DNA of 64,000 nt from Candidatus Woesearchaeota archaeon (GTDB lineage Archaea; Nanobdellota; Nanobdellia; Pacearchaeales; UBA284): NCBI GenBank assembly GCA_964396475.1, contig CAYNFE010000001.1, forward strand, positions 1,205 to 65,204, written 5' to 3'. Within the stretch, counting starts at the first letter, position 1. Each line of letters opens with the position of its first letter. Below, piece after piece: positions 4,059 to 43,619 of the stretch. The translations under genes and the position numbers were made by a program. The notes under the pieces are model-generated. The model searched no databases. It saw only the letters and a program-made list of their open reading frames with translations, and had not been told where the DNA came from.

Positions 4059-5300
4059 TTACAAATTTAATGAATTTAATAAGAGAGAGTTGAGTTTTTC
4101 TAGCAAATGTGAAGAATGATCTAATCTTATTTCTCTAGTTCTCCCATATCTTCCTTTGCTAATAACTCTAGCATTAATAACACCTAACATATCAAACTCT
4201 GCTATTATATCGGAAATACGTCTTTGTGTCAAACATTCTGTGCCTGATCTATGACAAAGTTCTCTATAAAAATTATAAATATCTCCTGTGAAAATAGGTT
4301 GATCTTTTATTTTTAATTTTTTAACTAATTTAATTATAGCAAGAAGAGTTAATTGGAATTGTTTAGGTTGTGATTCAACAGCAATCAAAATTTTATCAGC
4401 TTCTATTCTATCCTTAGCTTTGTCTATATAATCTAAAGTGATTTTTTTCTTGTTATCTCTTTCTACAAGTTCTCCGGCAATTCTTAATAAATCTAAAGCC
4501 CTTCTGGCATCTCCATGTTCACGCGCAGCATAAGCAGAACATTTTTCAATGACCCCCTCACCGACAATTTTTTGTTTGAATGCTTCCTTAGCTCTCCTTT
4601 TTAGAATATCTTGGAGTTGCAAGGCATTATAAGGAGGAAATAAAATTTCTTCTTCACTCAAGGAACTTTTAACTCTTGGATCTAATATTTCTATAAATTT
4701 TAAATCATTAGAGATTCCAATAATACTTATCTGTGATTTGTTTAATTCTGAATTAAGTCTTGTAAAATTATAAAGAAACTCATCACCTATTTTTTTTACA
4801 GCTCTATCAATTTCATCTAGAATAATAATAATTATTTGTTTTTTAGAATCAACAGCATCTATAAATTTACGATATAATTGATCTGTAGGAAGACCAGTCA
4901 TTGGAACTTTTTTACCTAATTTATTTAAAAGTTCAGCAAGAATTCTATATTCTGTATCAGCTACTTTCCTTAATTTACAATTGATATAAGGTATTAATAA
5001 AGGAACTTTTTGTTTAGACGCCCTTTTAATCAGTTCCTTTTTAATATAATTAATAACTAGTGTTTTGCCTGTCCCAGTTAAACCATAAACAAAAAGATTG
5101 CTTGGTTTTTCCATCCTTAAACTAGGAGCTATTATAGAAGCTACTTGTGTTATTTGTTTCTCTCTATGAGGTATAGTTTCAGGAGTATAATTAGTCTGTA
5201 AGATAAGTTTATTCTTAAAAATGGTTTGATTAATAAAAGAATCAAATATTTTATCTAATTTATTATTATTTTTATTGTTTTGTCCTCTTTTTTTATCCAT
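4059..5300 (-). CDS. cdc6: Orc1/Cdc6 replication initiator
   Basis: PHREKQI, Walker A GLTGTGKT, Walker B ILDEID, GDARRALDLLR, C-terminal wHTH SKGRYGRTR. Confidence 0.97.
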   Translation of the reverse strand: MDKKRGQNNKNNNKLDKIFDSFINQTIFKNKLILQTNYTPETIPHREKQITQVASIIAPSLRMEKPSNLFVYGLTGTGKTLVINYIKKELIKRASKQKVPLLIPYINCKLRKVADTEYRILAELLNKLGKKVPMTGLPTDQLYRKFIDAVDSKKQIIIIILDEIDRAVKKIGDEFLYNFTRLNSELNKSQISIIGISNDLKFIEILDPRVKSSLSEEEILFPPYNALQLQDILKRRAKEAFKQKIVGEGVIEKCSAYAAREHGDARRALDLLRIAGELVERDNKKKITLDYIDKAKDRIEADKILIAVESQPKQFQLTLLAIIKLVKKLKIKDQPIFTGDIYNFYRELCHRSGTECLTQRRISDIIAEFDMLGVINARVISKGRYGRTREIRLDHSSHLLEKLNSLLLNSLNL

Positions 5301-30168: not shown

Positions 30169-30438
30169 TTATTCCTTACTCTCTTCTGCTGGTTTTTCAG
30201 TTTCTTCTTCTTTTCTAGGCTTTATTCCTTTCCTTTTCATAAAACATTCTCTGCAATAAACTGGTCTGTCTCCTGAAGGTTTGAAAGGAACTTCTGCTTC
30301 TTTCCCACATTCAGCGCATGTTATCTTATACATCTTTCTTGGACCACTAAATCTTCTAGGGCCACTAAATTTTCTCTGACCGCCGAATTTTCTAGGGCCG
30401 CTTTTTCTTCTTGGGCCTCCTCTTCCACTATATGGCAT
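30169..30438 (-). CDS. CxxC-x17-CxxC zinc-ribbon protein with Gly/Arg repeats (start revised to 30438)
   Basis: CAECGKEAEVPFKPSGDRPVYCREC; 18-bp coding repeats giving GPRKF/SGPRRF. Confidence 0.8.
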   Translation of the reverse strand: MPYSGRGGPRRKSGPRKFGGQRKFSGPRRFSGPRKMYKITCAECGKEAEVPFKPSGDRPVYCRECFMKRKGIKPRKEEETEKPAEESKE

Positions 30439-30490
30439 TTTTTTAATCCTCCTATTGCATATCAATTTAATTCTTATTTATAAACTTTCC

Positions 30491-42715: not shown

Positions 42716-43018
42716 CTACCTCCTTTCATTTTTTTTATAAATATAACGAGAATAAGCACCACATTTCAGGCACTTTATTGATATCTTTCCTTTAGATAGT
42801 CTGGCCTTATAATTTTTCCCAGGAACAAAATAAGTATTACATTTCCTGCAAAATTTTTTTCTATAATTTTTCAAAGAAATATTATTCCTCTTAGCTAATT
42901 TCCTTGCAAGAGATACGTATTTCCTTGCAAGTCTAGGTCTTTTTTTAGATTCTTTTTTAGCAAATATGAATAATTTCTGTATGTTGTCAAGAATCAACTT
43001 GTCTTGTTCTTTCCTCAT
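42716..43018 (-). CDS. rnp4: RNase P protein Rpp21
   Basis: LARKYVSLA, FCRKCN...PG, CLKCG. Confidence 0.9.
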   Translation of the reverse strand: MRKEQDKLILDNIQKLFIFAKKESKKRPRLARKYVSLARKLAKRNNISLKNYRKKFCRKCNTYFVPGKNYKARLSKGKISIKCLKCGAYSRYIYKKNERR

Positions 43019-43034
43019 TTTAGAAAATTTTAAA

Positions 43035-43146
<112 letters not shown>

Positions 43147-43232
43147 AATAAAAACAAATGAGATAAGACTTTTAAATTTTTCTAACGAGGATAATAGAAA
43201 CTTTTAAATAAATAAAAAATTTCTCTGAAAAG

Positions 43233-43325
43233 AGAGGGTGGGGATAATCTAGGATTTACAGTACGGTACTTCGGTGCCTACTAACGATCTTCTTCGGGAG
43301 GTCACCTAGATCCTTTCTACCTTCT
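43233..43325 (+). ncRNA. Unidentified structured ncRNA (three-way junction, two cUUCGg hairpins)
   Basis: Extensive pairing valid only on + strand (G-U pairs); TATA-like TTTAAATA at 43203-43210. Confidence 0.75.
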
Positions 43326-43377
43326 TATATAATCTGATTCTAAAATTTTATAAATAAATAATCCCTCTTTATAGAAT

Positions 43378-43461
43378 GCGGGGGTGCCGGAGTGGTCAAA
43401 CGGGACAGACTCAAGATCTGTTGGCTTAGTGCCTACGCAGGTTCGAATCCTGTCCCCCGCA
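43378..43461 (+). tRNA. tRNA-Leu(CAA)
   Basis: Stem ACAGA/TCTGT, loop CT-CAA-GA, long variable arm. Confidence 0.96.
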
Positions 43462-43464
43462 CTT

Positions 43465-43539
43465 GCTCCTGTAGCTCAGTCTGGATAGAGCACCTGCCTC
43501 CTAAGCAGGGGGTCGCAGGTTCAAATCCTGCCAGGGGCG
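43465..43539 (+). tRNA. tRNA-Arg(CCT)
   Basis: Stem CCTGC/GCAGG, loop CT-CCT-AA. Confidence 0.95.
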
Positions 43540-43619
43540 TTTTTTAGAATTAGAAAATTAGGAATAAATAAATAAAGAAAAATTCTAAGAAATTTATAAA
43601 ATTAAAATACAATCTATTT

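Follow-up and report, generated by a model that had tools for sequence, protein, structure and literature searches.

A predicted three-way-junction RNA gene beside tRNA-Leu(CAA) points to a new and narrow RNA family in Pacearchaeota

What is encoded in the short G+C-rich island that separates a 5S rRNA gene from tRNA-Leu(CAA) in the genome of a Candidatus Woesearchaeota archaeon (GenBank assembly GCA_964396475.1, contig CAYNFE010000001.1)? The stretch of DNA analyzed here, referred to below as the window, comprises 64,000 nucleotides (nt; positions 1,205 to 65,204 of the contig), and a preliminary description made from its letters alone had proposed a novel stable RNA at positions 43233-43325 of the plus strand. 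We call this 93-nt element RNA X; it reads AGAGGGUGGGGAUAAUCUAGGAUUUACAGUACGGUACUUCGGUGCCUACUAACGAUCUUCUUCGGGAGGUCACCUAGAUCCUUUCUACCUUCU. Minimum free energy (MFE) folding returned exactly the structure that had been drawn for it, with -40.8 kcal/mol and a z-score of -4.84; none of 200 dinucleotide shuffles was as stable, and the MFE structure accounts for 56% of the ensemble. The minus strand folds unremarkably (-18.1 kcal/mol, z = -0.07), and a covariance model gave 107.4 bits (E = 2.4e-27) on the plus vs. 12.3 bits on the minus strand, which bears out the earlier view that the G·U pairs fix the strand. X is present in the window as a single copy; a second copy or paralogue was rejected, the next match of the model reaching 12 bits. 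The G+C content is 0.46 at X vs. 0.30 for the whole window, as expected for the G+C-rich island described, and TATA-like boxes were found at both places given for them, 43203-43210 and ~43347.

The fold consists of a 12-base-pair (bp) outer stem, a 2x2 internal loop UA/CC, a 7-bp helix P1 and a three-way junction that carries the arms P2 and P3. The basal helix therefore has 19 bp with the 2x2 loop inside it, and its outer stem includes four G·U pairs in the window. The structure is fully nested, and both hairpin loops of the window fold are 4 nt long. Across homologues, P2 is built from 3-4 bp, one bulged nucleotide, 5 bp and a tetraloop. The parts of X and its predicted promoter, which contains a purine-rich element resembling the B recognition element (BRE), are as follows:

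43195-43210, plus strand: promoter of X, BRE-like purine-rich element and TATA box TTTAAATA (43203-43210)
43233-43244, plus strand: outer closing stem, 5′ strand, purine-rich; pairs with 43314-43325
43245-43246, plus strand: 2x2 internal loop, 5′ half UA; the 3′ half CC is at 43312-43313
43247-43253, plus strand: P1, 5′ strand AUCUAGG; pairs with CCUAGAU at 43305-43311
43254-43259, plus strand: junction strand J1/2, AUUUAC
43260-43282, plus strand: arm P2, 9 bp with a bulged C and a cUUCGg loop (tetraloop 43270-43273)
43283-43285, plus strand: junction strand J2/3, AAC
43286-43303, plus strand: arm P3, 7 bp with a cUUCGg loop (tetraloop 43293-43296)
43304, plus strand: junction nucleotide J3/1, A
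43305-43325, plus strand: 3′ strands of P1 (43305-43311), of the internal loop (CC, 43312-43313) and of the outer stem (43314-43325, pyrimidine-rich)

To locate homologues, Rpp21 was used as the anchor, syntenic contigs were fetched, and X was identified in them by BLAST and nhmmer; further searches were done with a degenerate DNA pattern made from conserved blocks and with the covariance model R1. Synteny, DNA pattern and covariance model together gave 18 distinct homologues of X, in metagenome-assembled genomes (MAGs) labeled Pacearchaeota or Woesearchaeota and in metagenomes, with one copy per locus at 75-112 bits. The strict DNA pattern matched eight of 185,579 species-representative genomes, all of them MAGs labeled Pacearchaeota, Woesearchaeota or "archaeon" and one of them the complete 710,724-bp genome CP061211.1. 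With the same kind of pattern only three Joint Genome Institute (JGI) metagenome contigs were matched, and there were no matches on viral contigs. X was found also in loci L025, L026 and L027, where Rpp21 is only 44-56% identical to that of the window, but the covariance model did not find it within 6 kb of the 5S gene in a Pacearchaeote with 35% Rpp21 identity (L028/L029). On this sampling the X family is real but narrow, belonging to a subclade of Pacearchaeota (DPANN archaea). Its narrow range and its absence near 5S in the distant Pacearchaeote imply that X is not universally essential.

Covariation was evaluated in two alignments, one made with MAFFT from 14 sequences and not fitted to the structure, the other model-based and containing 19 sequences, 18 of them distinct. 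RNAalifold on the MAFFT alignment gave essentially the same fold, with only the weakest P2 pair (31-47) left unpaired. Here pairing extends to 96.3% of cells, with double changes in 14 of 35 pairs. On four of five measures the alignment exceeded all 500 column shuffles, the fifth, the number of further pair types, being at shuffle level. Sliding the 3′ partners by 1-3 columns reduced pairing to 37-54%. Results for the model-based alignment were similar, with 96.5% of cells paired, double changes in 17 of 35 pairs and again no shuffle (0/500) reaching the observed level on four of five measures; for further pair types 6 of the 500 did. Double changes occur in all helices (9/19 basal pairs, 4/9 in P2 and 4/7 in P3), and in P3 99.2% of cells are paired. 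The search for DPANN homologues and covarying stems, put forward in the preliminary description as a check, thus yielded both.

The changes are not distributed evenly along the molecule. Outer-stem pairs 1-9 covary freely, with double changes in up to 9 of the 18 sequences. The innermost pairs of the same stem are close to fixed: G10·U and G11·U each in 17 of 18 sequences and A12-U in all 18. Next to them the 2x2 loop is nearly frozen as UA/CC, which is present in all of set A3, the sole variants being AU/CC in L026 and UA/UC in L027. In P1, pairs 16-80, 17-79, 18-78 and 20-76 are invariant (18/18), pairs 15 and 19 are either A-U or G-U, and the top pair G21-C is weak, being replaced by GA or GU in 7 of 18 sequences. 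The core of P1 reads YCUAGR on both strands, which makes it quasi-palindromic and the helix quasi-twofold symmetric. J1/2 has the consensus (A/G)UUU(A/G)C, in which U23, U24, U25 and C27 are invariant in A3; variants are GUUUAC, AUUUGC, UUUAC, UUUUC and GUUUC. The middle A of J2/3 is invariant in A3, J3/1 is A throughout except for G in L023, and the 3′ strand CUAGAUCCUUU does not vary in A3.

The two UUCG tetraloops had been taken as a sign of selection for a stable RNA. Each of them is UUCG in 17 of 19 copies; in P2 it is otherwise UUAG or CUCG, and in P3 it is UUAU in L006 and UUU in L005. Because each loop is replaced in two of the 19 copies, the loops are stability caps and not recognition sites; the stabilizing role proposed for them stands, a role as functional sites does not.

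Results of a comparison of identities give a measure of the constraint. For the 12 genomes in which X, 5S rRNA and tRNA-Leu(CAA) all occur, pairwise identity averages 78.7%, 83.6% and 86.0%, respectively. The adjacent Rpp21 protein drops to 44-56% identity. With a value so close to those of 5S and tRNA-Leu, X is by this measure under constraint comparable to that of core translation RNAs.

Transcription signals are conserved too. The BRE-like element reads TAGAAAC in the window and CCGAAAA/G in homologues; the combination (C)CGAAA(A/G)-TTTA(A/T)ATA was seen in 18 of 19 copies, ending 20-26 nt (mostly 21-22 nt) before the first base of the stem. When the established geometry of archaeal promoters is applied to this TATA spacing, the X transcript probably starts at 43233/43234, that is, with no leader and at the first pair of the closing stem. 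Most copies of X are followed within ~25 nt by an oligo-T run. Such a run is missing from the window, L001, L018 and L011 up to the TTTT of the next TATA box, and some read-through from X is possible in these four. X thus combines the features of conserved structured non-coding RNA genes in general, namely homologues, compensatory changes, a strand-specific fold and transcription signals of its own. As far as sequence evidence can carry the claim, the X gene is real: it encodes a structured RNA on one strand, exists as a single copy, has a promoter of its own and is under strong purifying selection.

What could such an RNA do? A frozen core set against arms and an outer stem that covary and keep their length is the pattern of an RNA whose core would be recognized by a protein or some other macromolecule. 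We therefore propose that X may be the RNA scaffold of a housekeeping ribonucleoprotein (RNP), read at its invariant core, and give this proposal roughly an even chance (about 50%). Transcription from the strong BRE/TATA promoter of X would begin with the first base of the closing stem, and the RNA folds into a rigid Y made of the basal helix, the three-way junction and two short UUCG-capped arms. A protein would then read the tandem G·U pairs, the A-U pair, the UA/CC loop, P1 and the junction strands, possibly as a dimer given the YCUAGR quasi-palindrome of P1, and the outer stem and the two arms would serve only to brace the structure at constant length and to keep exonucleases off. RNAduplex runs of X against tRNA-Leu and 5S rRNA in 11 genomes gave no consistent site, with z mostly within +/-1.5, and this lack of significant pairing favors recognition by a protein over antisense action. 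How well X is conserved, its strong promoter and its place among 5S and tRNA genes point to an RNA that acts constitutively in translation or RNA processing, not to a regulatory small RNA.

A simpler answer would be that X is a known RNA in disguise. The window and 19 loci were compared with Rfam 15 (4,227 models) at gathering thresholds, and the X region together with six divergent loci at the relaxed limit of E <= 10. The first search, which the preliminary description had named as a check, matched only 5S rRNA and tRNAs. At E <= 10 no family was found for X in the window and the six divergent homologues beyond chance overlaps with a structure-less human long non-coding RNA model, antisense in the window (E = 4.4) and with E = 2.7 in L021. 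The statement that X lacks the signatures of tRNA, signal recognition particle (SRP) helix 8, RNase P, C/D, H/ACA and hammerhead RNAs was upheld by these searches and by inspection. ARAGORN and RF00005 find five tRNAs in the window but not X, which has no 7-nt, T or D loops, and C/D or H/ACA guides were dismissed for want of UGAUGA, CUGA, a 3′ ACA and any Rfam match. A kink-turn (L7Ae) site was likewise discarded, since on inspection the tandem sheared G·A would break covarying pairs. No paper was found in the literature on structured RNAs of Pacearchaeota or DPANN archaea, nor one that gives the X core sequence as an RNA. Judged by its covarying homologues, its own promoter and the lack of an Rfam family, X is the novel stable RNA that had been proposed, and the founding member of a new RNA family rather than a member or variant of a described one. 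"New" holds here at the level of the RNA family and is not claimed for a mechanism.

X might still derive from the SRP RNA S domain or from RNase P RNA, drastically reduced, diverged or split off as a trans-encoded piece, or be an extra 5S-like ribosomal RNA. It lies in a cluster of stable RNA genes, beside 5S and near Rpp21, the genome of its hosts is small (0.71 Mb in the complete genome CP061211.1), and its three-way junction resembles both loop A of 5S rRNA and the SRP junction of helices 5, 6 and 8. The likeness to 5S rRNA extends to a small stable structure closed by pairing of the 5′ and 3′ ends, an own promoter, a G+C island and similar conservation. However, X has no sequence or profile similarity to 5S rRNA; its arms are plain UUCG-capped helices without loops B, C, D and E, and its basal helix has 19 bp vs. 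~10 bp in 5S. RF00001 matches the neighboring gene at full length (78 bits) and does not match X even at E <= 10, so that a complete 5S gene exists besides X. With the S domain of SRP RNA X shares a long basal helix leading to a junction with two hairpins; yet it has neither the symmetric and asymmetric loops of helix 8 nor a GNAR/GNRA loop, the P2 bulge is a single nucleotide, and the archaeal SRP model (RF01857, Archaea_SRP) does not match at E <= 10.

RNase P RNA forms the P4 pseudoknot from CR-I and CR-V and is at least ~190 nt long. X, by comparison, has 93 nt, is fully nested, lacks P4 partners, CR-I and CR-V, and matches neither RF00373 nor RF02357, which speaks against RNase P RNA of types A, M and T. 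A CR-I-like string in L001, resembling GGAAAGUC, was set aside, as it occurs in one homologue only and lies inside the covarying P3 stem. The retention of Rpp21 moreover implies a conventional RNase P RNA elsewhere. Over the window and the six homologues, none of the Archaea_SRP, RNaseP_arch, RNaseP-T, 5S and large or small subunit rRNA models matched at E <= 10, and the hairpin loops are UUCG instead of GNAR/GNRA and replaceable, as noted above. We consider it very unlikely that X is any of these. The association with SRP, RNase P or the ribosome suggested in the preliminary description is not supported; it was drawn from the Rpp21 and 5S neighborhood, and X carries no defining motif of SRP or RNase P RNA.

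Could the invariant junction instead be an active site or a binding pocket, X being a small catalytic or ligand-binding RNA? The junction letters are near-invariant, and the strand lengths of 6/3/1 (in the order P1-P2-P3) come close to the 7/3/1 of the hammerhead, in the same order. The conserved catalytic nucleotides of the hammerhead (CUGANGA, GAAA, NUH) are absent, though: the junction strands AUUUAC, AAC and A do not contain the core letters, and no ribozyme or riboswitch model matched at E <= 10. Loop-loop contacts typical of three-way-junction ribozymes and aptamers are lacking, the UUCG caps being unable to pair. Nor is there a gene placed for regulation in cis; the gene after X is a tRNA, and each of the two has a promoter to itself, on which ground a riboswitch or cis-acting leader was also rejected. 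A catalytic or ligand-binding function is thus highly improbable, more so than any other answer considered here.

Two other systems bear comparison with X. The three-way junction of 16S rRNA bound by S15, and its mRNA mimics, carry a G·U motif about one helical turn off, which makes a bipartite site for a single protein. X has, as a lead only, the same combination of a three-way junction with a G·U motif beyond a small internal loop, but its junction lengths and sequences differ, and it is a free-standing gene and not part of rRNA or a ribosomal-protein leader. The orphan RNAs HgcC, HgcE, HgcF, HgcG and SscA of A+T-rich archaea, reportedly described by Klein et al. in 2002, resemble X in being G+C-rich structured islands of an A+T-rich archaeal genome whose function is not known; unlike them, X belongs to a DPANN lineage, and it shows no Rfam match to them.

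The gene neighborhood of X was examined for further clues. In the window, a plus-strand cluster S13-S4-S11-RpoD-tRNA-Leu(AAG)-L18e-L13-S9-RpoN is followed by Rpp21 and 5S on the minus strand, then by X, tRNA-Leu(CAA) and tRNA-Arg(CCT) on the plus strand, with SecF/SecD further on. The genes and signals next to X are:

42716-43018, minus strand: Rpp21, RNase P protein subunit, Pfam Rpr2
43034-43146, minus strand: 5S rRNA, divergent upstream neighbor (Rfam RF00001, 78 bits, full length)
43338-43354, plus strand: separate promoter of tRNA-Leu(CAA), BRE/TATA TTCTAAAATTTTATAAA, with the TATA box TTTATAAA at 43347-43354
43378-43462, plus strand: tRNA-Leu(CAA), downstream neighbor
43464-43540, plus strand: tRNA-Arg(CCT), directly after tRNA-Leu(CAA)

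Rpp21 and 5S had been named as neighbors that might hint at function. Rpp21 is part of a conserved S13-...-RpoN-Rpp21 cluster, and 5S, usually divergent upstream of X, can be separated from it or inverted. Two genes lie between them in L004, ~1 kb in L023, and in L027 (4660-4913, minus strand) the 5S gene is inverted with respect to every other locus, so that 5S, X and tRNA-Leu stand head-to-tail on one strand; the promoter of X is kept there, its BRE/TATA lying inside a 45-nt spacer. A locus with the same Rpp21 protein as L001 and an equally scoring 5S (L002, 1-2300) has an insertion sequence (IS) element and small open reading frames (ORFs) where X is expected; upstream of its 5S the contig ends in an IS element with a DDE_Tnp_IS240 transposase, and no X was found within 2.3 kb. 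This points to insertion of an IS at this hotspot or to a break in the assembly.

The one strictly conserved neighbor of X is tRNA-Leu(CAA), which the preliminary description had not singled out. In all loci that extend far enough downstream, L005 among them, it lies 50-110 nt behind X and in the same orientation. X might accordingly be coupled to this tRNA as a dedicated factor, either in cis, through tandem promoters or a read-through precursor, or in trans, as a helper in folding, modification or splicing or as a decoy. Every other adjacency of the cluster is broken at least once and this one is not, and the missing oligo-T before the tRNA promoter in the window, L001, L018 and L011 would allow read-through. 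On the other hand, the tRNA has its own conserved BRE/TATA, with exactly 23 nt from the end of the TATA 8-mer to G+1 in six genomes (the window, L001, L004, L006, L018 and L027), and the spacer of 50-110 nt is a small target for rearrangement, so that the linkage may be merely inherited. Conserved complementarity is lacking, as the RNAduplex z-scores given above indicate. Two possible contacts seen in the window were rejected: an 8-nt match to the tRNA variable arm (GUGCCUAC), shared in the window only, where the P2 arm and the variable arm vary independently across genomes, and a 6-nt guide pairing with the anticodon arm (GAUCUU/AAGAUC), which is not conserved in L001 and others. Neither match shows co-variation. 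On balance we regard a dedicated coupling to tRNA-Leu(CAA) as unlikely.

Several observations concern this tRNA gene itself. The 23-nt TATA spacing suggests a leaderless or near-leaderless transcript, such as those described for Nanoarchaeum; Rpp21 is retained all the same. Some genomes have introns or inserts in tRNA-Leu(CAA): in L005 (3480-3600, minus strand) an insert of ~30 nt sits at a non-canonical site in the anticodon-stem region of a gene that ARAGORN and Rfam missed and that was seen by eye, in L026 (~4440-4630, minus strand) a long intron follows the anticodon, and in L021 (640-754, minus strand) the gene is 115 nt long. In the window tRNA-Arg(CCT) starts only 3 nt after tRNA-Leu, and in several genomes it is displaced, with a PIN gene or other genes in between.

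This PIN gene encodes a stand-alone PIN-domain protein of 149-197 amino acids with lysine/arginine-rich tails. It was found immediately behind tRNA-Leu(CAA), and in the same orientation, in eight deeper-branching genomes, namely in L016, L020, L021 and L022 and at the following positions:

L005, 2941-3534, minus strand: PIN-domain gene
L013, 472-1023, minus strand: PIN-domain gene
L025, 4043-4501, minus strand: PIN-domain gene
L027, 3425-3874, minus strand: PIN-domain gene

Its best NCBIfam match is the N-terminal PIN domain of the PRK13764 PIN-ATPase-KH proteins. The window and its closest relatives have no such gene at this place, and the ancestral cluster looks like X - tRNA-Leu(CAA) - PIN.

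Could X, in the manner of a Y RNA or a tRNA minihelix, serve an enzyme of RNA processing or quality control as a decoy or adaptor? Y RNAs have a terminal stem with a conserved protein-binding site and a distal module that recruits a second factor; they are not known in archaea. X is similar to Y RNA and YrlA in its size (~90 nt vs. ~90-110 nt), in that both ends are held in a long stem with a conserved internal-loop module, invariant in X, and in that the distal part varies. P1 and P3 could also stack, judging by the fold, into a ~14-bp rod like an acceptor/T minihelix, and in the deeper-branching genomes the PIN gene is conserved after X and tRNA-Leu. Against this, X has no Ro-binding helix with a bulged C, no T and D loops and no Ro gene beside it; the Rfam search gave no Y_RNA or YrlA match, no TROVE (Ro) gene was found in the fetched loci, and the PIN gene is missing at this place in the window and its closest relatives. 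A Y-RNA-like or minihelix-like role appears quite unlikely.

We return to the proposal that X is the scaffold of a housekeeping RNP. Several points weigh against it. The partner protein is postulated, the RNP being deduced from the conservation pattern, and the X transcript itself is predicted in uncultivated organisms. An invariant helix can also have its cause in RNA-RNA tertiary contacts, a bound ligand or catalysis. The family is narrow (eight of 185,579 species genomes by the strict pattern) and absent near 5S in the distant Pacearchaeote, and a scaffold role does not explain the strict adjacency to tRNA-Leu(CAA). A bolder version would give X a place, as RNA subunit, in a housekeeping RNP that is new and specific to this lineage. 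It would be either an extra ribosome-bound RNA or part of a dedicated tRNA-Leu(CAA)- or RNA-processing particle that offsets the loss of proteins or RNA elements in the reduction of DPANN genomes; this we hold to be improbable. If it were true, X would represent a new functional class of cellular RNA and not just a new family. New stable cellular RNAs with strong covariation are rare, and SRP RNA, RNase P RNA, 6S RNA, Y RNA and tmRNA each marked a distinct machine. An RNA gene kept nearly as well as 5S and tRNA genes while proteins diverged to ~45% identity is unlikely to be dispensable in minimal DPANN genomes. X is small, rigid and well defined, which suits it to pull-downs and structure determination, and it can serve as a specific marker for its Pacearchaeota subclade.

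The other G+C-rich islands of the window were considered as missing SRP or RNase P RNA and rejected, as all of them are coding. Two of them, the first a protein gene and not an RNA gene, are:

30169-30465, minus strand: G+C-rich island encoding a 98-amino-acid arginine/glycine-rich protein with a CxxC...CxxC zinc ribbon
1-~1000, minus strand: ORF resembling PolD DP2 (DNA polymerase II large subunit), running off the start of the window and G+C-rich at 835-970, a part initially taken for a possible RNA island

The 98-amino-acid zinc-ribbon product is probably a small nucleic-acid-binding protein.
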